Assembly (NCBI GenBank): GCA_017429505.1
Contig: JAFROW010000010.1
Span: 2,996 to 66,995, forward strand
DNA from: Clostridia bacterium
Lineage (GTDB): Bacteria; Bacillota; Clostridia; TANB77; CAG-508
Length of the DNA: 64,000 nt
Direction: 5' to 3'
Part shown: one piece after another, positions 37,090 to 56,225 of the stretch
Layout: the number at the start of each line of letters is the position of its first letter
Position numbering within the stretch: the first letter of the stretch is position 1
Position numbers and translations under genes: made by a program
Notes under the pieces: generated by a model
What the model saw: only the letters and a program-made list of their open reading frames with translations
What the model was told of the DNA's origin: nothing
Database searches by the model: none

Positions 37090-38505
37090 CTAAGTTTTTG
37101 CAGTAAAATATCCTGGATTAGATTGACCTTCATCTATGTGAGCATAAGTTTTGTTTTTTTTGCTTGAACTGTATGTTGTTCCTGAACCTCCTACTAAATT
37201 TATACAGCCTTCAAACATATCTGTAGAGTTAATATCATTTCCATGTGAATCTATCCCTTTTTCAAATTTATCAACTACAAATCTATCTGATGCATATATT
37301 GTAGATAAATTATTGCATTGTGCAAACATATAATACATATATATTGCATTGCTTGTATCAAAATTACTTAAATCTAGGTTTGTTAAATTAGTACCCCTAA
37401 ACATGTGTTGCATATTTGTTACTTTTGATGTATCAAAACTGCTTACATCTAAACTTGTTAATCCTGTACAATAATAAAACATACCACTCATATTAGTTAC
37501 TTTAGATGTATTGAAATTACTTACATTAATACTTGTTAATTTTTTGCATCTGTTAAACATGCTAATCATATTAGTAGCATTCGATGTATTAAATCTACTT
37601 ACATCTAAAACCGTCAATGAATTACAATTATCAAACATATATGCCATTGTTGTTACTTTTGATGTATCAAAGCTCGTTATATTTAAGCTTATAAGACTAG
37701 TACATTCTTCAAACATAGAAGTCATATCTGTTACATTTGATGTATTAAAACTTTTTAAATTTAAACTTAATAATCCATAACAATGCATAAACATACTTGA
37801 CATTTTAGTTACTTTAGATGTATTAAAATTTCTAATGTCTAATCTTGTTAATTGACTACATCTGTTAAACATAGAAGTCATAATATTTACATTCTGCGTA
37901 TCAAAACTACTTACATCTAATTCCTTTAATTCACTACAATAAGAAAACATAGCACCCATGTTAGTTACATTTGATGTATCTATTTTACTTACATCTATAT
38001 TAGTACATTTTACACATTTATAAAACATGTACGAACTATTTGGATTTGATTCTGGCTCTTCATCTTTTGTATACCAATATATTGTTCCATTTGTGTTATC
38101 AAACCACATATATATTGGCATATTTGATTCAGGTGTAGATACAATATTTGAATCAATTTTATTTTCAGCAGATATTTCTGTCGCTCTTTTTATTTCTTTT
38201 ATATTTGTATCTTCTGTATTGTAAGTAGCACCTTCTGTTCCTGCAAGCTGTTTCATCTTCGCATTTACTTGTGTTCCTGTTTTAAATATTGCTCTTGGTA
38301 CAAAAGTTTCTTCATAAACTTGCTCTTCATTCCCCACGTCTTTTTCATAGCTTGACTTTGTTTTTTCAAATTGAGCATCTATACTTGCTTCTTTGTTTTT
38401 AAAACTCACTCCAACACTTGTTACAACTACTAAGAAAAATAGTGCTGATAAAAGTACAAATAGTGAAATTGAACCATTTTCATTTTTTACCATCTTTTGC
38501 ATCAT
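37090..38505 (-). CDS. BspA-like surface protein with ~10 tandem DUF285-type leucine-rich repeats (MF..C..L..LD.S.FDTSNVTNM)
   Basis: N-terminal TM anchor. Repeat unit FNTSNVT(N/D)M(S/T)SMF..C..L..L is repeated ~10 times. It lies between adk and map inside the spc operon. Confidence 0.7.
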   Translation of the reverse strand: MMQKMVKNENGSISLFVLLSALFFLVVVTSVGVSFKNKEASIDAQFEKTKSSYEKDVGNEEQVYEETFVPRAIFKTGTQVNAKMKQLAGTEGATYNTEDTNIKEIKRATEISAENKIDSNIVSTPESNMPIYMWFDNTNGTIYWYTKDEEPESNPNSSYMFYKCVKCTNIDVSKIDTSNVTNMGAMFSYCSELKELDVSSFDTQNVNIMTSMFNRCSQLTRLDIRNFNTSKVTKMSSMFMHCYGLLSLNLKSFNTSNVTDMTSMFEECTSLISLNITSFDTSKVTTMAYMFDNCNSLTVLDVSRFNTSNATNMISMFNRCKKLTSINVSNFNTSKVTNMSGMFYYCTGLTSLDVSSFDTSKVTNMQHMFRGTNLTNLDLSNFDTSNAIYMYYMFAQCNNLSTIYASDRFVVDKFEKGIDSHGNDINSTDMFEGCINLVGGSGTTYSSSKKNKTYAHIDEGQSNPGYFTAKT

Positions 38506-41206: not shown

Positions 41207-41461
41207 TTTTGGTTTGCACCTCCTTGTTATGAATTTTATATTATTTCTTTTTAAAAATCAATATATTTTTATAAATTTCTATTTTTTGTTATTCTTTGGA
41301 AATATATATTATTTTATAATACTGCGTAAGCGACCAAACGAGCTTAGCGAGTGCGAATTGGAGCAATCTTCATATAGTTTTTTTATAAAATGGAGATTGC
41401 GACACCAAAGTATTACAAAATAATATATATTTCCTATTAGCATAACTTACTATTCTAGAAA

Positions 41462-42337: not shown

Positions 42338-42390
42338 TTTATTTCTCCTTTCTTCATATTCGAATATTTATGATTTCTAATTTTAATCAA

Positions 42391-42497
42391 AAACGAGTAT
42401 TGCAAGGCGAAATTTTATGAAAAAGCGGAGCATACTTTGTGTATGTGAGCATTTTGAATAAAATTCCAACGAAGCAAGACGAAGTTTTTCATTAAAA
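42391..42497 (+). repeat. copy A of a ~100-nt structured intergenic repeat (forward orientation on the plus strand). Spacer between rplF and rplR
   Basis: CAAGGCGAAATTTTATGAAAAAGCGGAGCATACTTTGTGTATGTGAGCATTTTGAATAAAATTCCAACGAAGCAAGACGAAG. Central hairpin CATAC-TTTGT-GTATG. Confidence 0.7.
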
Positions 42498-43034
42498 TTA
42501 TTTACCAGTTTTACCAACCTTACGTCTAATAACTTCCTCAGCATATTTAATACCTTTACCTCTATATACTTCAGGTGGTCTCTTTGTTCTTATTTCTGCA
42601 GCTACTTGACCTACTTGTTCTTTATTAATTCCTTTTACTATTATAGTATTTGGGTTTGGAACATCAAAAGAAATTCCTGTAGGTGCTTTATATATAACTG
42701 GGTGTGAATATCCAAGTGAAAGATTTAAATCATTTCCTTGTTTTTGAACTCTGTATCCAACACCATTTATTTGTAATTCTCTAGTGAATTCATTTTGTAC
42801 ACCTTCGATCATATTGTTTACTAAAGTTCTAGATAAACCATGTAAACTTCTGTGTAATCTTTCCTCACTATGTCTTTCAAATGTAATTATTCCATCTTCA
42901 AATTTTATAGTGATTTGTGGATTGATATCTCTTTCAAGTGTACCTTTTGGTCCTTTTACAGTAATATGTTGTCCGTCTAATTTAACTTCTACTCCTGCTG
43001 GTACTGTAATAGGTTTATTTCCTATTCTTGACAT
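42498..43034 (-). CDS. rplF: 50S ribosomal protein L6
   Basis: 178 aa, SRIGNKPITVPAGVEVKLDGQHITVKGPKG. Confidence 0.95.
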   Translation of the reverse strand: MSRIGNKPITVPAGVEVKLDGQHITVKGPKGTLERDINPQITIKFEDGIITFERHSEERLHRSLHGLSRTLVNNMIEGVQNEFTRELQINGVGYRVQKQGNDLNLSLGYSHPVIYKAPTGISFDVPNPNTIIVKGINKEQVGQVAAEIRTKRPPEVYRGKGIKYAEEVIRRKVGKTGK

Positions 43035-43068
43035 TTAAGGTTCCTCCTTCTTTTTATAAATCATTTTA

Positions 43069-43467
43069 TTACCAAATATAAGCTAAAACTTCTCCACCTA
43101 CACCAGCTGCTCTTGCTTCTTTGTCTGTCATAAGACCTTTAGATGTAGAAATAATTGCTATACCTAGTCCATTAAGAACTTTAGGTAATTCTTCTTTATT
43201 TGCATAAACTTTTAATCCTGGTTTACTTATTCTTTTTAAACCATCAATTACTTTAGCACCTTTTTCTCCGTACTTTAAAGTAATTCTTATTGTTCCTTGA
43301 GCATTATCATTTATTTGCTCAAAAGATTTTATATATCCTTCTCTGTATAAAATCTCAGCTATACCAACTTTCATTTTTGAAGCAGGTACATCTACAGTTT
43401 TATGTTTTGAAGTATTTGCATTTCTTATTCTTGTTAGCATATCTGCTATTGGATCAGTTGTGTTCAT
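43069..43467 (-). CDS. rpsH: 30S ribosomal protein S8
   Basis: [14 protein letters not shown]. Confidence 0.95.
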
Positions 43468-43521
43468 TACTAACCTCCTTTTTCTTTTAATTGATCTTAA
43501 TAATTCTTTATATTTTTGTTT

Positions 43522-43707
43522 TTACCAACTTGCTTTTTTAACTCCAGGAATTTCGCCCTTATTAGCTAATTCTCTGAAACAAATACGGCAAATACCATAT
43601 TTTCTAATATAAGCATGTGGTCTACCACATAATTTACATCTGTTATATTCTCTTGTTTTGTATTTTTGTGGTCTTTGTTGTTTTACTTTCATGGACATTT
43701 TTGCCAT
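43522..43707 (-). CDS. rpsZ: 30S ribosomal protein S14 type Z (zinc-binding)
   Basis: 61 aa with [23 protein letters not shown]. Confidence 0.95.
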
Positions 43708-43739
43708 TGAACAATTCCTCCTTACTTGTTTCCATTAAA

Positions 43740-43835
43740 TTCCAAATCCTGCTGTGTTAAAATTTTATTCAAAAATACTCATGTACCATATGTACACTCC
43801 GTTTTTTTCGTAAAATTTTGCCTTGCAGTATTTGT
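43740..43835 (-). repeat. copy B of the structured intergenic repeat (forward orientation on the minus strand). Spacer between rplE and rpsZ
   Basis: Minus strand reads CTGCAAGGCAAAATTTTACGAAAAAAACGGAGTGTACATATGGTACATGAG...TTGAATAAAATTTTAACACAGCAGGA. Hairpin TGTAC/GTACA shows compensatory pairing. Confidence 0.65.
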
Positions 43836-43896
43836 TTTTAATGAAAACATGTTATTCATTCACTTTTAGCTTCGCAAAACGAAGCTTTTCATTAAT

Positions 43897-44436
43897 TTAA
43901 GCTTTGAATGGCATTCCTAATAATTTAAGTAACTCTCTAGCTTCTTCATCAGTTTTAGCTGTAGTTACAAAAATTATATCCATTCCTCTTAATTTATCTA
44001 CTTTATCATATTCGATTTCTGGGAATATTAATTGTTCTTTTAATCCCATAGAGTAATTTCCTCTACCGTCAAAAGAATCTGCTGATACTCCTCTAAAATC
44101 TCTAACTCTTGGAAGTGCAACATTAAATAATTTGTATGCAAAATCATACATTTTATCTTTTCTTAATGTCACTTTGCATCCTAAGTCTTGACCTTCTCTT
44201 ATTTTAAATGCTGCAATTGATTTTTTAGCTTTAGTTACTATAGGTTTTTGACCTGTAATTTGAGCTAATTCTTTCATTGCATTTTCTAATGCTTTAGGAT
44301 TTTCTCTTGTATCTCCTAAACCAATATTTATAACTATTTTATCTAATTTTGGAACTTGCATTGTAGATTTGTATTCAAACTTTTTTGTTAAAGCTGGAAC
44401 AACTTGTTTTTCATATTGTTCTTTTAATGCGTTCAT
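43897..44436 (-). CDS. rplE: 50S ribosomal protein L5
   Basis: 179 aa, conserved L5 N-terminus. Confidence 0.95.
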
Positions 44437-44459
44437 TGATTAGTTCCTCCTTTCTTAAT

Positions 44460-44768
44460 TTACTTTAATTCTGCTCCACATTTTTTACAAATACGAACTT
44501 TTTTATCATTTTCTACTTTATATCTAACACGTGTTGCTTTTCCACATTTTGGACATACAACATTTACTATACTGCTATGTACAGGAAATTCTGATGGGAT
44601 AATTCCTCCTTCTTCTCCTGCTTTTCTTGGCTTAACATGTTTTTTTCTTATATTTACACCTTTAACAATTACTTTTTCTGTTTTAGGTATAACTTCTAAT
44701 ACTTCACCTGTTTTTCCTTTATCATTTCCTGATAAAACAATAACATTGTCGCCTTTTTTTAGTTTCAT
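44460..44768 (-). CDS. rplX: 50S ribosomal protein L24 (variant with a C-terminal C4 zinc ribbon CPKCG...CKKCG)
   Basis: KOW motif KKGDNVIVLSGNDKGKTGEV. Cys4 in the C-terminal 25 aa. Confidence 0.9.
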   Translation of the reverse strand: MKLKKGDNVIVLSGNDKGKTGEVLEVIPKTEKVIVKGVNIRKKHVKPRKAGEEGGIIPSEFPVHSSIVNVVCPKCGKATRVRYKVENDKKVRICKKCGAELK

Positions 44769-44814
44769 TTAAGGTTTCCCTCCTTCTTTAAATTATTTTC
44801 CGTTTTTCAAAGAA

Positions 44815-44912
44815 TAGTTATATTGCTAGGCGAAATTTTGTGCAAACACCGGAGCGTACTTTGTGTACGTGAGGATGTTTAAGCAAAATTACAACGACGC
44901 AAGATGACTATT
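44815..44912 (+). repeat. copy C of the structured intergenic repeat (forward on the plus strand). Spacer between rplN and rplX
   Basis: CTAGGCGAAATTTTGTGCAAACACCGGAGCGTACTTTGTGTACGTGAGGATGTTTAAGCAAAATTACAACGACGCAAGATGAC. Hairpin CGTAC/GTACG. Confidence 0.7.
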
Positions 44913-44923
44913 ATTTGGAAAAC

Positions 44924-45292
44924 CTATAGTACTTCTGGTGCTAGTGATAAGATTTTAAGATACTCTCCATCTCTTAACTCTCTAGCAACAGGTCCGAATA
45001 TACGTGTACCTTTTGGTGTTTTGTCTTCTTTTATAATAACAGCTGCATTTTCATCAAATCTAATATATGAACCATCAGCTCTTCTAATAGGATTCTTAGT
45101 TCTAACAACAACTGCTTTAACTACGTCACCTTTTTTAACAACTCCACCAGGTGTTGCTGATTTAACAGAAGCAACTACTATATCACCAATTGTAGCTGTT
45201 CTTCTAAATGATCCACCTAAACATCTGATAACCATTAATTCTTTTGCTCCAGTGTTGTCAGCTACTTTTAATCTTGTTTGTTGTTGTACCAT
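44924..45292 (-). CDS. rplN: 50S ribosomal protein L14
   Basis: [27 protein letters not shown]. Confidence 0.95.
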
Positions 45293-45308
45293 TTTGGTAT
45301 CCTCCTTC

Positions 45309-45569
45309 TTATTTAATTACTGCCTTTTTAACTATTTCAACTACTCTCCATCTCTTATCTTTAGATAAAGGTCTAGTTTCCATAACTTTAACTGTGTCTC
45401 CTACTTGGCATTTATTTTCTTCATCATGAGCTTTTAATGTATATGTCTTTTTTACTGTTTTTCCATATACTTTATGTTGTACATTTCTTTGAACAGCTAC
45501 AACTACAGTTTTATCCATTTTGTCAGATTTAACTGTACCAATCATTACTTTACGAAGATTTCTTTCCAT
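45309..45569 (-). CDS. rpsQ: 30S ribosomal protein S17
   Basis: 86 aa, [19 protein letters not shown]. Confidence 0.95.
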
Positions 45570-45778
45570 TAGTTATCTCCTTTCTTTTCAGCAATCTTTC
45601 TTTCAGTTAAAATAGTGTTAATTCTTGCAATGTCCTTTTTTACTGATTTTATTTTCATAGGATTATCTAATCCATTTGTAGCTAAGCTGAATTTTAATTT
45701 AAATAATTCTGTTTTTAATTCACCTAGTTCTTTTTCTAATTCAGGTGAAGACATTTCTTTTATTTTATTTAATTTCAT
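45569..45778 (-). CDS. rpmC: 50S ribosomal protein L29
   Basis: 69-aa helical protein in the canonical position between rplP and rpsQ. Confidence 0.9.
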
Positions 45779-46209
45779 TAATTTTCACCCTCCTCGATCT
45801 TTTCTCTTATTACGAATTTTGTTCTTACTGGTAATTTGTTAGCAGCTAAGCGTAATGCTTCTCTTGCAGTTTCTTCTGATACACCTGCAATCTCGAACAT
45901 TACTCTTCCTGGTTTAACATTTGCTACCCAAAATTCTGTATTACCTTTACCTTTACCCATACGAGTTCCTAAAGGTTTCTTTGTAATTGGTTTGTCTGGG
46001 AATATTTTAATCCAAACTTTACCATCTCTTTTCATATAACGAGTCATTGCAACTCTGGCTGCTTCTATTTGATTTCCTGTAATAGCTGCAGCATCTAATG
46101 TTTGTAGTCCAAATTCACCTTCATTAACTACATTTCCTCTTGTTGCTTTTCCTCTATTTCTACCTTTTTGTACTTTTCTATGTTTTGTTCTTTTTGGCAT
46201 TAATGGCAT
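45778..46209 (-). CDS. rplP: 50S ribosomal protein L16
   Basis: [25 protein letters not shown]. Confidence 0.95.
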
Positions 46210-46865
46210 TATTGTTCTCCTCCTTCCATTTTTTTGCTAGGAAGAATTTCTCCTTTATAAATCCATACTTTTACACCGATTTTTCCATATGTAGTTGCAG
46301 CTTCTGCAAATCCATAATCTATATCAGCTCTTAGAGTTTGTAAAGGAATATTTCCTTCTTTATAGAACTCTGTTCTAGCCATGTCTGCTCCACCTAATCT
46401 TCCAGATACTGCAGTTTTAATTCCTGCTGCACCTGATTTCATAGTTTTTTGCATACATTGTTTCATTGCACGTCTAAATGAAATTCTTCTTTCTAATTGG
46501 TTTGCTATATCTTCAGCAACTAGTTGTGCGTCAAGGCTTGTATTTTTAACCTCAACTACATTTAGGTTTACTTCTTTTCCTATTAATTTTTTAACTTGGT
46601 TCTTTAAGTCTTCTATTCCAGCTCCACCTTTTCCAATTAGGATTCCTGGCTTAGCTGTGTAAATATTAACTTTAACCATTTTTGCTGTTCTTTCTATTTC
46701 AATATTAGCGATTCCAGCATCATATACTTTTTTCTTTAAAAATTTACGGATTTTTTGGTCTTCTACTAAGCAGTCTGCAAAGTCTTTATCACTTGCATAC
46801 CATTTAGAGCTCCAATCTTTGATTATTCCTAATCTTGCTCCTGTTGGGTTTACTTTTTGTCCCAT
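46209..46865 (-). CDS. rpsC: 30S ribosomal protein S3
   Basis: [24 protein letters not shown] with KH domain. Confidence 0.95.
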
Positions 46866-46869
46866 TAGC

Positions 46870-47223
46870 TTAAGCCTCCTTTTCTTTTAGAACAATTGTT
46901 ATATGACTTGTTCTTTTTCTAATTCTTACTGCTGAACCTTTTGCAGCAGGTCTTATTCTTTTTAGAGTTGGACCTTGATTTGCATAGATTTCAGAAATAT
47001 ATAATTTATCATGTTTCATATCATGATTATTTTCAGCATTTGCTATTGCTGATTTTAATAATTTTTCTATAATGTCTGAAGATGCTTTTGGTGTGAATTT
47101 TACTATTGCTAAAGCTTCATCAACATTTTTTCCTCTTATTAAATCTGCAACAATTTTAACTTTTCTTGATGAAATTCTTGCATATTTAAGAGTTGCTGAA
47201 GCTGTTCTTATTTCTTCTTCCAT
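46870..47223 (-). CDS. rplV: 50S ribosomal protein L22 (start trimmed to the internal Met; GAGGAG RBS)
   Basis: [31 protein letters not shown] matches the L22 N-terminus. The first 14 codons of the tracked ORF are a leader. Confidence 0.9.
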
Positions 47224-47295
47224 AATTAACTCCTCTCTATTTATTTTAGATTCTAGTTGTATCATTTATTTTGATTATTTCCAGTTCTTGAAGAA

Positions 47296-47396
47296 TTGGG
47301 ATTTGACTAGGCAAAATTTATTGGAAAGGTAAGGAAGCATACTTTGTGTATGTGACCGCGTTTTCAATGAATTTTAACGACGTCAAATTTCAATTA
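47296..47396 (+). repeat. copy D of the structured intergenic repeat (forward on the plus strand). Spacer between rpsS and rplV
   Basis: CTAGGCAAAATTTATTGGAAAGGTAAGGAAGCATACTTTGTGTATGTGACCGCGTTTTCAATGAATTTTAACGACGTCAAATTTC. Confidence 0.65.
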
Positions 47397-47404
47397 TTCA
47401 TGAA

Positions 47405-47680
47405 CTATTTCTTAGTTGTCTTTTCTCCTGCATGACCTTTGAATGTTCTAGTAGGAGCAAATTCACCTAATTTATGTCCTATCATTTCTTCTGATATATA
47501 TACTGGAACATGTTTTCTTCCATCATGTACAGCAATTGTATGACCAACCATTTGTGGATAAATTGTAGAAGCTCTTGACCATGTCTTTAAAACTTCTTTT
47601 TTATTTTCCGCATTTAAAGCTTCAATTCTTTTTAATAATTTTGGAGCTATAAATGGTTTCTTTTTACTTGATCTTGACAT
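47405..47680 (-). CDS. rpsS: 30S ribosomal protein S19
   Basis: 91 aa, [33 protein letters not shown]. Confidence 0.95.
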
Positions 47681-47685
47681 AAGTT

Positions 47686-48513
47686 CTATTTCCTCCTTTT
47701 AACTATAAATTTATTTGATTGTTTCTTTTTATTTCTAGTCTTGTATCCTAGAGCTGGTTTACCCCAAGGTGTTAATGGTCCAGCGTGTCCGATTGGTGCT
47801 TTGCCTTCACCACCACCATGTGGGTGATCTACTGGGTTCATTGCAGAACCTCTAACTTCTGGTCTCCATCCCATATGTCTTTTTCTTCCTGCTTTTCCTA
47901 ATTTAACATTTGCATGTTCTGAGTTTCCTATAACTCCTATTGTAGCTCTACAATTAGCTAAAACAAGTCTCATTTCTCCTGATGGTAATCTTACATGTGC
48001 ATATTTTCCTTCTTTAGCCATTAATTGTGCGCTTTGTCCTGCTGCTTTAACAAGTTTTCCACCTTGTCCTGGATTTAATTCGATGTTGTGAATTAATGTA
48101 CCTACTGGAATACTGTTGATTTCCATACAATTTCCTGGTCTAATATCAACTGCTTTTCCTGATACTACTGTATCTCCATCTTTTAAATCTTGTGGTGCTA
48201 AAATGTATGATTTTTCACCATCTTCATATTGAATTAGTGCTATATTTGCACTTCTATTTGGATCATATTCGATTCCTACTACTGTGGCTTTCATATCGTC
48301 TTTTTTACGTTTGAAATCCATTATTCTATATTTTTGTCTGTTTCCTCCACCTTGATGACGTACTGTTATTCTGCCATAAGAGTTTCTTCCTGCTTTTTCT
48401 TTCTTTACAGCTAGTAAAGATTTTTCAGGAGTCTTTTTTGTTATTTCTGAATAATCTAATACTGTCATGTTTCTTCTTGAAGGTGTGTAGGCTTTAAATT
48501 TTTTTGTTGCCAT
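47686..48513 (-). CDS. rplB: 50S ribosomal protein L2
   Basis: 275 aa, conserved L2 motifs ([23 protein letters not shown]). Confidence 0.95.
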
Positions 48514-48537
48514 TTCTTTCTTTCCTTTCTCGAATTC

Positions 48538-48645
48538 GTGAAAAGCTTCGTCTTACTGCGTTAAAATTTTATTGAAAATGCTCACGTACTACGTGTACGC
48601 TCCGCTTTTTAATAAAATTTTGCCTTGTAATACTCGCTTTTGACA
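48538..48645 (-). repeat. copy E of the structured intergenic repeat (forward on the minus strand). Immediately 5' of the rplB RBS
   Basis: Minus strand reads AAAAGCGAGTATTACAAGGCAAAATTTTATTAAAAAGCGGAGCGTACACGTAGTACGTGAGCATTTTCAATAAAATTTTAACGCAGTAAGACGAAGC. Closest match to copy A. Confidence 0.7.
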
Positions 48646-48736
48646 AATTCTCTTATTTATTATTTTGGTGAGTTTTTTCCTGCCTCACTGCAGATAAAAT
48701 TTGTTTTCCTAGTTTTTTCTAGATATTTTTATATTA

Positions 48737-49273
48737 TTAATGTACTTGGTCTGATTGTTCTGGGGTGTCGACTTCTTTTTGTAAGGCTATCGCTATTTGT
48801 TTAATTGTTGACATATGACCGTCAGGTTTCACCTGTTTTAACCTTTTTGCCGATGTAATTATACTATCTAGTGTTTTCTCCCATACTTCAGTCCTCTCCT
48901 CTTGTGCTTTTTTATCCTGTTCTTCTTTATATTTTGTAAGCATATTACCAACTAGAGTTTTTAGTCTTTCTATACATCCCTTTATTTCTTCTGGAATATC
49001 CATTTCAAGCTTATCAGAAATTTTTTTTCTTTCCTCATTATATTTTTCGATAACTTCTTTTATCTCTTCTATACCATCAATTCCCAAATACTCATATTTT
49101 TTAATCGTAGTTAAAAAATTATGCATTGAATTATCTATCCATAATCTATAAAGTTCATCCCATGTATTATTTTCTGGCACAGCCTGCTGTAGAAGACTTA
49201 ATGCTATTTCCATATCCGACATAAAATTATGCGTATCATTTACATTACCTAATGAATTTGTAAATTCACTCAT
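48737..49273 (-). CDS. hypothetical acidic helical protein (178 aa) inserted between rplW and rplB and translationally coupled to rplW
   Basis: A TAGGAGG RBS overlaps the rplW stop codon. No TM segment and no recognisable motif. Breaks the otherwise universal rpsJ-rplC-rplD-rplW-rplB order. Confidence 0.55.
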   Translation of the reverse strand: MSEFTNSLGNVNDTHNFMSDMEIALSLLQQAVPENNTWDELYRLWIDNSMHNFLTTIKKYEYLGIDGIEEIKEVIEKYNEERKKISDKLEMDIPEEIKGCIERLKTLVGNMLTKYKEEQDKKAQEERTEVWEKTLDSIITSAKRLKQVKPDGHMSTIKQIAIALQKEVDTPEQSDQVH

Positions 49274-51666: not shown

Positions 51667-53760
51667 TTATATATCAATTTTGTATGTGTATGTTTTTCCA
51701 TAATCTGTATATGATACAATTACAGAACCATTACATATTGCAATAGATTCAGGTTCAAAGTATTTTAAATTACTTGGCTTTTTTGGTAATGTAATTTCAT
51801 TAATAACTTTAGTCTTTAAGTTTAATCTCCATAAGTTACTATCATTTATTCCTGAAAGTATATATATGCATCCCTTATAGTAGCATGTATCTTGTATGTA
51901 ATCCATTAATTTACAGTCAAATACCTCCATAATATCTTTTTGGCTTATTATTGCATTTTTATTTGATATATTAGGTATCTTAAATTTAAAAAATCTAGTT
52001 TTCTTTTCACTTAATCTTAAATTATAAACATACATATAGTTATTGTCAGTATCTATTACAAAATTTCCAAATGTTCTTTTTGTGTCTTTTACATTTTTCC
52101 AAATACTTGTGTTAATAAATCCAATTTTAATAGTCTGTTTTAGTTCACACTTAAATTTTTCATCTGCTCCTACAATTAGTCTATATACATAGCATACTCC
52201 GTCTTGTACTCCTTTATCATTATAAGCATTTATATATAACAATGGATATTTATCTGTTTTTTTATAAAATTGTTTACTAAAAGATACTGCATTGCAATGT
52301 GGAAAATTATTCTTACCATTTGGTAATGTAAATGTATTAACAAACTTATTTGTTTTTAAATTATAAACATTACATTTCCCTCCAGAAGAAAACATAAAAA
52401 GTCTATTATTATATATTTCGCAACCTTGTTGAGCCTTTATAGATTTTTGTAATGTAATTTTAGTTATTTTTCTAGGTATTTTGTCAATTACTTTAATTTT
52501 GCAAGTTGCAATTTTTCCATATTTAGAAGTAGCTCTAATTGTTGTTTCTCCATTTTCTTTCGCTGTAACAACACCATTTGAGTTCACCGAAGCTATGCTA
52601 GGTTTAAGTGATTCCCATCTTATTTCTTTTGAAGTTGTGTTTGTCGGATTAAAACTTACAACAAATTTTTGTGTACTTCCTTTATATAATGTCATATTTG
52701 TTGTATTTAAGCTTATACTTTTGGCTGGAATATTCACTTTTATAATGCATGTTGCTTTCTTCCCATTTGATGTAGACGCTGTTATAGTTATTTTTCCTGG
52801 TTTTATTCCTTTTACAACACCTTTTTTATTTACTTTAGCAATATTGTTGTTTGATGAAACCCATGTAATTGTTTTATTTGTTGTGTTTGTAGGTTGTATA
52901 GTAGCATTTAACTGTAAACTTGTTCCCACAGGTACTGTACAATCTGTTTGTTTTAATGTTATTCCTGTTGATTTTACTTCTGATTGTTTCTTTAAAATAT
53001 TTTTTGTATAAATTTCTCGTTCTGTTGTTGCCATTTCTATTTTTTCATTTTCATCATTTGAATAAGTCGATTCTATTAATGTTGTATTATCACTTTTTAA
53101 AATTTCCATTGTTGGGTTTTCAACTATTTCATTCTTTTCTGTAACTTCAATTTGACATGTTTTATATAAACCATTTATTGTTTTTGCTGTTATTATTGTT
53201 ATTCCTGCTTTTAATCCTGTTACATTTCCTATGCCATCAACTGTTGCTACCTTTGAGTCTGATGAACTCCATGTTACTACTTTATTAGTAGCATTTGTTG
53301 GAGAAATTGTTGATATTAATTTTGTACTTTTTCCTTCTTCTAATTTTATGACTGTTCTATCTAATGTAATTTGTGTTACTTCTATACTTTTCCATTTTTT
53401 TTCAATGTATGTTTTCCAATCTGAATGTTTTTGTTCGATTGTTGGAATTGTTGAAGCAGCTATATATTCCATTTCTCTTAATGTGTCAATAGAATCTATT
53501 ATTCCATCTTCATTTATATCTCCAAATTTAAATTTTTCACCTGTTAAAATCCAGTCTGAGTGTTTTTGATTTATTGAAGGAATAGTTGATGCTGCTATAT
53601 GCTCTAGTATTTTTAAAGTATCTCTTGAATCTATTACTTCATCTCCATTTATATCTCCTATTTTTAAGTTATTTTCTACTGCATTTTCTGTTTTGGGTAT
53701 AATACAAAAAAACATAGCTATTATTAAGATTGGGATTATTTTTTTACATAAAATTTTCAT
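51667..53760 (-). CDS. secreted protein with an N-terminal dockerin-type repeat pair, three Big_2-like Ig domains and a ~280-aa C-terminal domain of unknown function (start at MKILCKK; GGAGGAAGG RBS)
   Basis: Signal peptide. GDINGDEVIDSRDTLKILEHIAAS / GDINEDGIIDSIDTLREMEYIAAS is a duplicated Ca-binding dockerin-like segment. Three ~80-aa repeats with the Big_2 pattern (VTWSSSD..VATVD..G.V.G...G.A.I.A). Confidence 0.6.
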   Translation of the reverse strand: MKILCKKIIPILIIAMFFCIIPKTENAVENNLKIGDINGDEVIDSRDTLKILEHIAASTIPSINQKHSDWILTGEKFKFGDINEDGIIDSIDTLREMEYIAASTIPTIEQKHSDWKTYIEKKWKSIEVTQITLDRTVIKLEEGKSTKLISTISPTNATNKVVTWSSSDSKVATVDGIGNVTGLKAGITIITAKTINGLYKTCQIEVTEKNEIVENPTMEILKSDNTTLIESTYSNDENEKIEMATTEREIYTKNILKKQSEVKSTGITLKQTDCTVPVGTSLQLNATIQPTNTTNKTITWVSSNNNIAKVNKKGVVKGIKPGKITITASTSNGKKATCIIKVNIPAKSISLNTTNMTLYKGSTQKFVVSFNPTNTTSKEIRWESLKPSIASVNSNGVVTAKENGETTIRATSKYGKIATCKIKVIDKIPRKITKITLQKSIKAQQGCEIYNNRLFMFSSGGKCNVYNLKTNKFVNTFTLPNGKNNFPHCNAVSFSKQFYKKTDKYPLLYINAYNDKGVQDGVCYVYRLIVGADEKFKCELKQTIKIGFINTSIWKNVKDTKRTFGNFVIDTDNNYMYVYNLRLSEKKTRFFKFKIPNISNKNAIISQKDIMEVFDCKLMDYIQDTCYYKGCIYILSGINDSNLWRLNLKTKVINEITLPKKPSNLKYFEPESIAICNGSVIVSYTDYGKTYTYKIDI

Positions 53761-54028
53761 AATCCTTCCTCCTTCCATAATCTTCTGATATACTTATATT
53801 ATACCATTTTTAGTTAAGAAAGTCAATTTTTTATGTTTACTATGTTGCTATTATTTAAATAGTGTTTGGTGTATTTTTATATAGAAAAAATACCACTTAT
53901 CTTAATAGATACGTAGTATTTTTTATTACATAAAAAATCGCAAAATATTTCCAGATCAACAAGATTAAGTTTCCATGATTTGCACGATTGTAAAGCAATC
54001 TACACATATGTCAAAGTCACTTTTCTTA

Positions 54029-55501
54029 TTATATATTTAATTTTTTATATCGTACAAAGAACCATACTGATAATGAAATAAGTGCTACTATTCCTAAGAA
54101 AATTAACAATGTTTCTGCATCTCCTGAATAAGGTAAACTTTTACTTTTATTTGATGCTTTTTTAGTTATATCTTTTATACTTGATACTTTTTTACTTTCT
54201 TTTGTAGCTTCATCTATAATAGTAGTTCCTGATGTATCTCCAATTGTTGTTCCATTTTCTGATGTACCGCCATTTGATATAGTGCTATTTGAAGTATCTC
54301 CATTTGATATTTTACCTTCTGTTTCAGTTCCATCTAATATACTTCCGCCTGATGTACTTCCTCCTGTTGAACTTTCTCCTGTTGAACTCCCTCCTGATGT
54401 GCTTCCTCCTGTTGAACTCCCTCCAGATGTGCCTCCACTTGATGTTTCTCCTCCTGTTGAAGTTCCGCCTGATGTGCTTCCTCCTGTTGAACTTCCGCCT
54501 GATGTGCTTCCTCCTGATGTACCTCCACTAGTACTTTGAGATGACTCTACTTTTATGTTTAATGTGGTATCGATTAATGTGATTTTGCTATTATCAGCAG
54601 TAGTTGCCTTTATATTAGTAATTTTTGTTTGATATGTACCATTTTCCAATCCAGTTTTAGGTGTATAAATAATTTTTGCAATAGTTTCATCGCTTTTCCA
54701 AGCTTCAGAATTATTTGAAGAAATTGTAATATATCCTTCTCTGTTTACCAATGACCACTTATCTTCATTATAATTCCTAACTTTACAATCAAATCTACTT
54801 GAGTCATAATTTCCTATATAAAACTCAACCATTTTTAATCCATTACCTGCATTTACATTTGAAACCTTTACATTATATGTAATATCTTCTGTTGGTTTAA
54901 CACTAGTTTTGTCTGGTATAAAAGAAAAATTACATGAATAACTATTACCTGTACTTCCTCCTGATGGACTTTCTCCTGATGTACCTCCGCTAGTGCTTTG
55001 TGAAGATTCAACTTTTATATTTAGTGTTAAATCATTTAATGTCATCAAGCTATCATCAGCTGCAGTAGATTTTATATTAGTAATTTTAGTTTGATATGTA
55101 CCATTTGTCAATCCGGTTCTAGGTGTAAAAACAATTTTTGCAAGTATTTCATCTGTTTTCCACGCTTCAGAATTGTTCGATGTTATTGTAATATATCCTT
55201 CTCTGTTTACTAATGACCATTTGTCTTCATTATAATTTCTAATTTTGCAATCAAATTTGCTTGAATCATAATTTCCTATATAAAATTCAACCATCTTTAA
55301 TCCATTACCTGCATTTATATTAGATACTTTTAAATTATATGTAATATCTTCTCCTGGTTTCACACTAGTTTTATCAGAAATAGCAGTTATATTACATGTA
55401 TAATTATTCGCTGCATACACATATGGTTTTGTTATAAATGTAATCACAACTATAGCCACAAAAAACACCTTAAAAAATTTTACTTTCATATTTACTGACA
55501 T
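54029..55501 (-). CDS. cell-surface scaffold-like protein: signal peptide, two ~85%-identical cohesin-like modules, Gly/Ser/Thr linkers and a C-terminal sorting-signal-like tail (SLPYSGD + TM + RYKK)
   Basis: Module motifs GLKMVEFYIGNYDSSRFDC, REGYITISSNN, ETIAKIIYTPKTGLENGTY and ITLIDTTLNIKV are collinear with type-I cohesin. The start is ambiguous (55489, 55501 or 55585). Confidence 0.55.
   Translation of the reverse strand: MSVNMKVKFFKVFFVAIVVITFITKPYVYAANNYTCNITAISDKTSVKPGEDITYNLKVSNINAGNGLKMVEFYIGNYDSSKFDCKIRNYNEDKWSLVNREGYITITSNNSEAWKTDEILAKIVFTPRTGLTNGTYQTKITNIKSTAADDSLMTLNDLTLNIKVESSQSTSGGTSGESPSGGSTGNSYSCNFSFIPDKTSVKPTEDITYNVKVSNVNAGNGLKMVEFYIGNYDSSRFDCKVRNYNEDKWSLVNREGYITISSNNSEAWKSDETIAKIIYTPKTGLENGTYQTKITNIKATTADNSKITLIDTTLNIKVESSQSTSGGTSGGSTSGGSSTGGSTSGGTSTGGETSSGGTSGGSSTGGSTSGGSSTGESSTGGSTSGGSILDGTETEGKISNGDTSNSTISNGGTSENGTTIGDTSGTTIIDEATKESKKVSSIKDITKKASNKSKSLPYSGDAETLLIFLGIVALISLSVWFFVRYKKLNI
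54336..54532. repeat. tandem ~30-nt nucleotide repeats encoding the (SGGS/TSTGG)n linker of the cohesin scaffold gene
   Basis: Repeated cctcctgttgaactYccNcctgatgtgcttc units. They create the spurious overlapping ORFs 54282..54539 (+), 54289..54531 (+) and 54334..54528 (-). Confidence 0.8.
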
Positions 55502-55577
55502 TCCTTTCAAGAAATAAAATTTGATTAAAAATAATTGTTTTTCAAACTTATATCCTATGCTTTTATTCTTTTTTGTA

Positions 55578-56225
55578 TTAATCAACTTTTATATTGATAT
55601 TATTATCAGCAATGCTAAAAATTTGGCTATCTCCAGAAGTAAATTTAATATTATTAAGTGAAGTTTTGTAGCTACCAGCAGATACATTTGATTTAGCAGT
55701 AAAAACAATTTTTGCAATTACTTGATCTTCAGTACTTACATCATCACTTTTTACCATTGTTAGATATCCTTCTAAAAAGCCTATTTTCGACCAATTTTCT
55801 TCTTCATTACTAATAACCTTACAATCAAATAAATTAGAATCATAATCTATATATGTTTCAAATGATCTAATACCTTGTCCTGCATTGATATTTGAAATTT
55901 TCACTTCGTATTCTATAGATTCTCCTGGTTTTATGCTTTTTTTATCTCCATTTATTGAAATATTGCAAGAATAATTGTTATTCTCTACGCTTTTTTTAGT
56001 TTCTGTTGTACTTCTTGTATTATTAGTATCACCATTATAATAGTGATCTACCAAAGTATTATATTGACTTTTAGATTTAAAATATGCTGACCAAGAAATA
56101 ATATTTAAAACTATTGCAAATATTAAAAGTGCAATTACTAATCCATAAATCCATATATTTTTCTTTTGAATTTTAATAACTCCTTCTTCTGGTGCTCTTC
56201 TATCTCCTTTTCTTCTGTCTCCCAT
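55578..56225 (-). CDS. type-II membrane-anchored protein with a single diverged cohesin-like module
   Basis: N-terminal cytoplasmic GDRRKGDRR, TM IWIYGLVIALLIFAIVL, then IEYEVKISNINAGQGIRSFETYIDYDSNLFDC ... DQVIAKIVFTAKSNVSAGSY. GGAGGA RBS. Confidence 0.5.
   Translation of the reverse strand: MGDRRKGDRRAPEEGVIKIQKKNIWIYGLVIALLIFAIVLNIISWSAYFKSKSQYNTLVDHYYNGDTNNTRSTTETKKSVENNNYSCNISINGDKKSIKPGESIEYEVKISNINAGQGIRSFETYIDYDSNLFDCKVISNEEENWSKIGFLEGYLTMVKSDDVSTEDQVIAKIVFTAKSNVSAGSYKTSLNNIKFTSGDSQIFSIADNNINIKVD

Follow-up and report, generated by a model that had tools for sequence, protein, structure and literature searches.

A dispersed family of imperfect hairpins of about 120 nt in the ribosomal-protein operon spacers of a Clostridia bacterium and beside housekeeping genes of distant phyla

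The stretch of DNA analyzed here (the window) comprises 64,000 nucleotides of a Clostridia bacterium (GenBank assembly GCA_017429505.1, contig JAFROW010000010.1, positions 2,996 to 66,995). It has a G+C content of 27–31% and a strongly negative GC skew on its plus strand over the full length, and its minus strand carries the S10/spc cluster of ribosomal-protein genes, running from rpsJ to rplO and on to secY and adk. One element is present five times in intergenic spacers of this cluster, as a preliminary description made from the sequence alone had proposed; their places and orientations (three copies on the plus strand and two on the minus, so that one operon holds both) were confirmed in the sequence and with a covariance model. 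The extent of about 100 nt given there proved too short, as each copy is a complete imperfect hairpin of 119–124 nt, paired to the last base (Table 1). The covariance-model scan proposed in that description, built from the five copies and run over the 64 kb with filters off, returned those five only (94.6–125.7 bits; next best E > 1), so that its claim of no further copy holds, for the window only; relatives carry many. Folding z-scores of the five copies range from −3.4 to −8.0 against dinucleotide shuffles. Throughout, the "forward" strand of the element is the strand that folds better and bears purine-rich loops, and related genomes and contigs are denoted by L numbers. The nearest genome in the one-genome-per-species collection is L006, an uncultured Clostridia metagenome-assembled genome (MAG) with ribosomal proteins 94–100% identical to those of the window; identical ribosomal proteins also occur on animal-gut metagenome contigs of 100–160 kb.

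RNAalifold, applied to the five copies, gives 45 pairs, with both sides changed in 22 of them. Among 59 copies from several phyla, double changes occur at 42 of the 45 pairs, which bears out the earlier proposal that the structure is under constraint; the apical compensatory changes on which that proposal was based (CATAC/GTATG, CGTAC/GTACG and TGTAC/GTACA) are correct, though they form a small part of the covariation. Paired cells amount to 90.9% in the 59 copies versus 33–48% with slid partners, and none of 500 shuffles reaches the observed values; the alignment was fitted to the model, which favors the structure, but the margin is very large nonetheless. The conserved part is a core of about 88 nt, delimited in these Clostridia by a TTGC/GCAA helix. 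It contains two loops, the first with C-W-AGGC-R opposite Y-AAC-NNN-G and the second with GGAG opposite TGA, where 53 of 56 sequences retain a G·U beside a tandem G·A. A third, outer loop has CGA opposite GAAG in Clostridia and CGAGCGAAG/CGAGCGCAG in Gammaproteobacteria. Near-invariant positions are those of the internal loops; the stems vary by covariation, and the sequence of the outer stem (about 20 bp) varies by subfamily, yet it pairs to the last base. The internal loops are purine–purine (tandem G·A type) on one strand and hence pyrimidine–pyrimidine on the other, so that the purine-loop strand folds better: this is true of 120 out of 135 distinct copies, with mean energies of −40.3 kcal/mol for the better-folding strand versus −32.6 kcal/mol for the other, and for the five window copies the advantage holds with DNA parameters too. 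Forward covariance-model scores are likewise about three times the reverse scores, the opposite strands of the window copies reaching 33–44 bits.

The placement of the hairpin relative to genes follows a strict pattern, in which the 3′ end of the forward strand always faces a gene, and the copies sit at the outermost ends of their spacers. In the ribosomal-protein clusters of 17 genomes or strains, antisense copies lie 1–9 nt from the last sense codon, overlapping or touching the stop codon (two exceptions lie at 18 and 136 nt), and sense copies end 14–20 nt before a start codon, immediately 5′ to the ribosome-binding site (here the two exceptions lie at 61 and 150 nt). The other genome loci, outside ribosomal-protein clusters, show the same pattern. 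Among the matches listed from an independent metagenome scan, which yielded at least 120 stretches, the 3′ end adjoins the stop codon of an antisense gene in 52 of 69, nearly all at −17 to +16 nt, and lies upstream of a sense gene in 17 of 69, mostly 13–24 nt before the start. Where one spacer holds two copies, their 3′ ends are directed outward, and on the 5′ side an AT-rich spacer of at least about 20 nt, devoid of a conserved motif, is always retained. The mRNA strand of the elements bears no intrinsic-terminator pattern of a hairpin plus a run of T, and essential genes lie downstream; from this we infer that transcription reads through the elements. The operon mRNA would then hold imperfect duplexes of about 55 bp directly after stop codons or before ribosome-binding sites. 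A search of the elements for a promoter of their own or a conserved 5′ tail gave AT-richness only. A small encoded peptide was also considered and rejected, as the other copies do not conserve the 14-codon open reading frame (ORF) of copy A.

Table 1. Positions and properties of the hairpin copies and of other features of the window and related loci. Scores are from the covariance model; energies are folding energies.
Feature	Sequence	Position	Strand	Score (bits)	Energy (kcal/mol)	z	Context
Copy A	window	42378–42500	+	120.9	−31.6	−4.6	antisense to operon; core roughly 42399–42478; 3′ end overlaps rplF stop (42498–42500)
Copy B	window	43727–43849	−	125.7	−35.4	−8.0	mRNA sense; begins 47 nt after rplE stop, ends 19 nt before rpsZ start (43707)
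Copy C	window	44802–44923	+	124.5	−45.1		antisense to operon; 3′ end abuts rplN stop (44924–44926)
Copy D	window	47283–47406	+	94.6	−46.4 (other strand −25.9)		antisense to operon; 3′ end overlaps rpsS stop (47405–47407); divergent D-type core
Copy E	window	48532–48650	−	115.5			operon sense; begins 86 nt after ORF178 stop, ends 18 nt before rplB start (48513)
Solo remnant	window	43855–43896	−				directly after rplE stop; A-type outer stem lacking a core; short hairpin 43868–43886
Tandem array	L019	6344–6599					see text
Tandem array	L020	1948–2469					see text
Empty rpsH–rplF spacer	window	43035–43068					AT-rich
CrcZ small RNA gene	Stutzerimonas stutzeri L035	1–351					
Element copy	Stutzerimonas stutzeri L035	431–548					about 80 nt downstream of CrcZ gene
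ORF178	window	48737–49273	−				178-aa orphan ORF between rplW and rplB
Orphan ORF, 204 aa	L059	97–711					rplW–rplB
Orphan ORF, 94 aa	L063	214–498					rplW–rplB
Orphan ORF, 139 aa	L065	306–725					rplW–rplB
Orphan ORF, 99 aa	L068	426–725					rplW–rplB
Orphan ORF, 134 aa	L059	6133–6537					rpsH–rplF; strain-specific
Orphan ORF, 130 aa	L066	4028–4420					rpsH–rplF; strain-specific
Orphan ORF, 69 aa	L062/L064	4434–4643					rplN–rplX; strain-specific
147-nt hairpin	window	41294–41440			−47	−8.2	rpsE–rplO; 26-bp perfect outer stem
Missing rpmD (L30)	window	41207–41461					between rpsE and rplO
DUF285 ("Mycoplasma") protein	window	37090–38505	−				directly after adk; 78-nt tandem repeats
Big_2/dockerin-like surface protein	window	51667–53778 and 54269–55950 (with neighboring gene)	− (first interval)				upstream of rpsJ

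To follow individual sites, the window was compared with contigs that encode an identical L14 protein and whose ribosomal proteins are 95–100% identical. Sister strains have empty sites, spacers of 14–34 nt at the same positions, which bears out that the element enlarges the spacers of the window. The rpsS–rplV spacer is empty (14 nt) in L059, L061, L065 and L068, filled in the window and two others, and holds a solo stem of about 40 nt in one strain. The rpsQ–rplN and rpsH–rplF spacers are both empty in the window; four strains have the first filled, and one strain has a sense copy in the second. Orientation differs as well: the rplF–rplR spacer holds an antisense copy in most strains and a sense copy in one, and the rplE–rpsZ spacer holds the solo stem and sense copy B in the window and one antisense copy in the others, the site of the remnant at the rplE stop being occupied by a complete antisense copy in L059, L061 and L062. 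The site of copy E has no copy in L062, L064, L065 and L068, with flanks that are otherwise alignable, and the same turnover of spacer occupancy is seen between the window and L006. Furthermore, copies that are 95–98% identical occur at non-orthologous loci of different MAG species. Sites that are filled or empty among near-identical strains, and near-identical copies at unrelated loci of different species, together show that the family moves.

The same comparisons reveal a modular construction. In L059 the rplN–rplX spacer keeps the outer stem of copy C with the core replaced by six bases, and solo stems also follow rpsE and rpsS in other strains. The D-like core is found on A-type, C-type and other outer stems, and the converse is also true; core types and outer-stem types recombine freely, and the core of about 88 nt behaves as a module carried on a variable outer stem. 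In L019 and L020 (Table 1), a single spacer holds a tandem array in which two to four copies from different subfamilies are combined. In L019 the copy proximal to the stop codon belongs to another subfamily than the copy at that position in other species, which would fit repeated insertion at the stop-codon junction.

Turnover of this kind could in principle arise with no dedicated mobility, through homologous recombination, gene conversion or template switching among spacers that resemble one another (they share stop codons, AT-rich linkers and AAGGAGG ribosome-binding sites), combined with exchange of conserved housekeeping genes between strains. The shuffling of cores and outer stems is in keeping with this explanation, as is the finding that whole spacer alleles, including ribosome-binding sites and adjoining codons, differ between filled and empty sites, and copies are enriched next to highly conserved genes, as would be expected of hitch-hiking on flanks that recombine. 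One further observation points the same way: the AT-rich tail that accompanies the inserted rpsQ–rplN copy in L061 and L063 (TTTAAAATGATATATAAAAAAGGAGG) is approximately the same as the empty rpsH–rplF spacer of the window (TAAAATGATTTATAAAAAGAAGGAGG), which suggests copying between spacers by recombination. From the alleles compared, exchange of whole spacers by homologous recombination clearly appears to contribute as well. As a complete account it leaves unexplained why the same architecture stands beside unrelated genes in distant phyla, and likewise the fixed length, the strand asymmetry and the discrete gain or loss of a core within an unchanged outer stem; we consider it unlikely to be the whole explanation.

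The distribution across genomes was determined by an exact-pattern scan over one genome per species, requiring AGGCRAAAWTT and RAGYRTAC-N5-GTAYRTGA; by our own estimate, about one chance match or fewer is expected in the species collection. The scan matched 51 loci, with 29 in uncultured Clostridia MAGs, mostly from gut or rumen, and 16 in Gammaproteobacteria (Thalassolituus, Oceanospirillaceae, Stutzerimonas stutzeri, Thioalkalispiraceae, Woeseiaceae, Pseudohongiella and others). Five belong to Campylobacter (four Campylobacter concisus isolates and one uncultured Campylobacter MAG), one to a Parachlamydiaceae MAG and one to an alphaproteobacterial MAG. Three features that lie outside the search pattern are nevertheless present in all groups: the Y-AAC-NNN-G of the 3′ arm, the full rod of 45 pairs and the outer tandem G·A loop. 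The G+C fraction of individual copies, taken for the copies themselves, ranges from 0.24 to 0.56. With a gammaproteobacterial copy as query, unannotated copies were found on plasmids of the Pseudomonas syringae group and on a Halomonas replicon; a clostridial copy gave no match in phage and plasmid collections, and the pattern scan of viral contigs gave none. In Stutzerimonas stutzeri L035 a copy lies near the CrcZ small RNA gene (Table 1).

The preliminary description had held the element to be confined to ribosomal-protein operon spacers, which is wrong: S10/spc clusters account for only 9 of the 51 loci. Neighbors assigned with Pfam include pta, two ackA genes, ispG, pgk, gap, fabZ, fba, nrdD, rimM, scpA, genes for four pyruvate:ferredoxin oxidoreductase (PFOR) subunits, an oligopeptide-binding protein and an ABC-F protein. 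Our reading of the sequences adds eno, lpxC, guaB, gcvT, lipA, pyrC and uvrB in Proteobacteria and, among the metagenome matches listed, groES, groEL, rpsP, rplS, infB, pheT and def. The host genes are predominantly highly expressed, conserved housekeeping operons, with glycolysis, PFOR, pta–ack, groESL and translation all represented. This distribution contradicts an origin as a cis-regulatory RNA of ribosomal-protein operons, that is, an autoregulatory protein-binding site or leader. All five window copies do lie in the S10/spc cluster, and in our reading of the alignment the tandem G·A loops resemble protein-binding RNA motifs; against this, three of the five are antisense to the mRNA, the element flanks glycolytic, fermentation, chaperonin and DNA-repair genes, sister strains have empty sites, and no Rfam leader matches. 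We give this explanation next to no weight, and the earlier judgment that the element is not a conventional leader stands on both the antisense copies and the non-ribosomal neighbors.

Comparison with Rfam 15 at gathering thresholds gave no match in the window and none over the element in 18 related loci, and a permissive search (E ≤ 10) gave chance-level matches only, in line with the earlier statement that the element fits no ribosomal-protein leader or riboswitch family. Resemblances to rRNA boxA, 5S rRNA, signal recognition particle RNA and group II domain V were rejected, as they extend over a few bases or concern one lineage only. A literature search with the conserved 11-mers gave chance matches only, and neither the general literature nor a 2024 review of MITEs (miniature inverted-repeat transposable elements) offered a candidate family.

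The label "MITE/REP-like" used in the preliminary description is apt for the general class and fails for an ordinary MITE, meaning an internally deleted insertion sequence (IS) moved by a DDE transposase via terminal inverted repeats with duplication of the target. Like a MITE, the element is small, non-coding, palindromic, multi-copy, present in both orientations and polymorphic between strains. The ends of the hairpin, where conserved terminal inverted repeats would lie, vary by copy and subfamily, and it is the center that is conserved. Target-site duplication is likewise not apparent: across 79 copies, the longest direct repeat shared by the two flanks has a mean length of 1.87 nt, versus 1.75 ± 0.16 for shuffled pairings of left and right flanks. 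No transposase gene recurs in the 2–15 kb around each copy, and the ends of the Pseudomonas syringae MITEs MITEPsy1/2 differ from those of the element. An ordinary MITE is accordingly disfavored and, in our estimation, improbable.

To our knowledge, dispersed palindromic repeats (REP, ERIC, BOX and Correia) are normally lineage-specific, and the way in which several of them move is still unknown. The REP/BIME sequences of Enterobacteria and the REPINs of Pseudomonas resemble the element in being extragenic palindromes that accumulate at gene 3′ ends and inside operons, where the element is also found. They are co-transcribed and non-autonomous, have no DDE-type terminal inverted repeats or target duplication, and are thought to move as folded single strands. 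REPs are known to stabilize the mRNA upstream of them, and those near a stop codon influence how the upstream gene is translated. They differ in being 20–40 nt, GC-rich and species-specific, with a conserved 5′ GTAG/GTGG and a tie to a RAYT gene, whereas the element is a single AT-rich rod (119–127 nt) of about 120 nt with three conserved purine loops, no conserved 5′ tetranucleotide and the same design across phyla. No GTAG motif was found in the alignment of the element and no RAYT gene was seen in the loci; tblastn of these loci with sequences of the IS608 TnpA and Escherichia coli RAYT proteins gave no match. ERIC/IRU sequences (127 bp) share with the element its length, an imperfect palindrome, transcribed intergenic sites, either orientation and a mobilizing enzyme that is unknown. 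There is no sequence similarity, no rule of placement by stop and start codons is known for ERIC, and a gammaproteobacterial copy of the element found no match in 5,426 E. coli genomes (20,395 records, sensitive blastn).

The Correia elements of Neisseria are also hairpin-forming repeats of about 100–150 nt, co-transcribed with their neighbors and polymorphic between strains; they are cut or bound by RNase III and can alter the expression of flanking genes (PMC2649163). Their conserved 26-nt terminal inverted repeats, TA target duplication, integration host factor site and restriction to Neisseria have no counterpart in the element. Palindrome-associated elements derived from IS200/IS605 (PATEs) likewise lack terminal inverted repeats and target duplication, are strand-specific, are recognized by their hairpins and have a strong orientation bias. 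They contain two short subterminal hairpins and insert beside a fixed tetra- or pentanucleotide, in contrast to the one long hairpin described here, for which position frequencies show no conserved flanking word.

A parallel in placement is offered by the attC sites of integrons, which are imperfect palindromes of 60–140 nt found directly after a stop codon, have one active folded strand antisense to the upstream ORF and are recognized by structure and unpaired bases. On this basis the copies could be integron-like attC sites and the orphan ORFs in the operon (described below) gene cassettes; a length of about 120 nt is near that of Vibrio attC, the folded strand starts at the stop codon of the upstream ORF, to which it is antisense, and variable orphan ORFs stand beside copy E in several strains. 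The arrangement of conserved and variable parts is nonetheless reversed: attC has complementary end boxes (R′ and R″; RYYYAAC / GTTRRRY) around a variable center, while the element lacks these boxes and has variable ends, a conserved center and an AAC that faces AGGC rather than GTT. Its hosts are essential core housekeeping genes, not cassettes, and no integrase was seen in the 2–15 kb around each copy. The attC identity is largely contradicted and we regard it as very improbable.

Taken together, these results make it probable that the five copies are members of a dispersed family of imperfect hairpins of about 120 nt that is mobile and non-autonomous, uncatalogued and similar to REP, ERIC and Correia repeats. 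The family is best filed among the dispersed palindromic repeats, as a variant that crosses phyla. The strand asymmetry, the loops common to several phyla and the absence of terminal repeats suggest that the folded purine-loop strand is what is recognized. Spread would then proceed through a folded single strand (DNA or RNA) of that sense, recognized by a trans-acting factor through the conserved loops, rather than by way of a DDE transposase and terminal inverted repeats. After insertion the element would be co-transcribed, and any function that it has would be that of a long RNA hairpin between cistrons. Judging from REP, ERIC and Correia sequences, such a hairpin may be cut by a double-strand-specific RNase or may block exonucleases, and the stabilities of neighboring cistrons might be uncoupled in consequence, giving segmental mRNA stability.

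A narrower version of this proposal, which we put forward only tentatively, is that the core of about 88 nt represents a new kind of mobile hairpin, lacking terminal repeats and target duplication, that inserts into the apex of short hairpins located after stop codons or before ribosome-binding sites, with its purine-loop strand recognized via the tandem G·A loops by an enzyme common to distant phyla, and with the placement rule as the signature of the mechanism. The enzyme might be a nuclease or recombinase that acts on single-stranded DNA; a route based on a reverse transcriptase is another candidate.

The recurrence of one hairpin design in distant phyla hints at a shared partner, and this opens an explanation in which mobility is secondary: the element would be a selected structured nucleic acid whose purine-loop strand, as RNA or single-stranded DNA, is bound or cut by a widespread bacterial protein. 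The loops and hairpin geometry recur in Clostridia, Gammaproteobacteria, Campylobacter and the Parachlamydiaceae and alphaproteobacterial MAGs with freely covarying stems, hardly any variation is seen at the G·U and the tandem G·A, and placement relative to stop and start codons is strict. In addition, the copy at the rplF stop is 87–93% identical between species in which L6 is only about 78% identical and the adjacent spacer is unalignable. The individual sites are dispensable, however, as close strains lack particular copies or have them inverted; near-identical copies at unrelated loci suit recent spread better than conservation in place; and the structured strand is not the transcribed one in most copies. 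We rate this explanation as possible but rather doubtful.

Several points also weigh against the mobile-family interpretation. Because the search pattern forces parts of two loops, some of the conservation across phyla is built in. Strains differ in entire spacer alleles, the comparisons showed no clean insertion junction, and some of the spread could be due to ordinary homologous recombination of the conserved flanking genes rather than transposition. No transposase-like family recurred when ORFs were clustered over about 130–190 loci with 2–15 kb around each copy, a weak test in which the clusters around the copies consisted of housekeeping families only. The majority of copies lie antisense to the operon that hosts them. 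The apparently selected strand is therefore, as a rule, absent from the mRNA, and the case for a function at the RNA level alone is weaker for it; co-transcription, and RNase processing if any, are themselves predictions.

The full 120-nt hairpin, the strand asymmetry, the placement rule, the strain polymorphism and the cross-phylum distribution were all absent from the preliminary description. Clostridia of the gut, marine Gammaproteobacteria, Campylobacter and a Parachlamydiaceae MAG have the same loops and geometry, the placement rule is sharp and easily scored, and movement has been caught among near-identical strains inside an essential operon. Two questions become testable, namely what recognizes and moves hairpin elements that have no terminal repeats, and whether long intercistronic hairpins tune relative gene output in highly expressed operons. 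There is also a practical warning, as enlarged spacers in ribosomal-protein operons of uncultured Firmicutes are mobile insertions and not conserved leaders.

The operon varies in other ways (Table 1). ORF178 is inserted between rplW and rplB, and at the same site the other strains have unrelated orphan ORFs, all of them followed by the same conserved segment of about 70 nt with a small hairpin (GTGAGGCAGGAAAAAACTCAC); the site looks like a hotspot for variable small genes within an essential operon. Further orphan ORFs occur in the rpsH–rplF spacer, where the 134- and 130-aa products look like membrane proteins, and in the rplN–rplX spacer. None of the orphan ORFs in the ribosomal-protein spacers matched a Pfam or PHROG family. 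The rpmD gene is absent from its place between rpsE and rplO, likewise in the gene calls of related contigs, and a different hairpin of 147 nt fills that spacer in the window. It is missing from L059, L061 and L063, which have a solo C-type stem instead; L073 and L096 contain partial relatives, and this hairpin probably represents a second mobile family. At the end of the cluster, the position after adk that usually holds infA, rpmJ, rpsM, rpsK and rpoA is occupied by the DUF285 protein gene. On the other side, upstream of rpsJ, a gene neighboring that of the Big_2/dockerin-like surface protein has internal repeats of 15 nt and 462 nt, and related contigs encode cohesin-domain proteins beside the surface protein gene.

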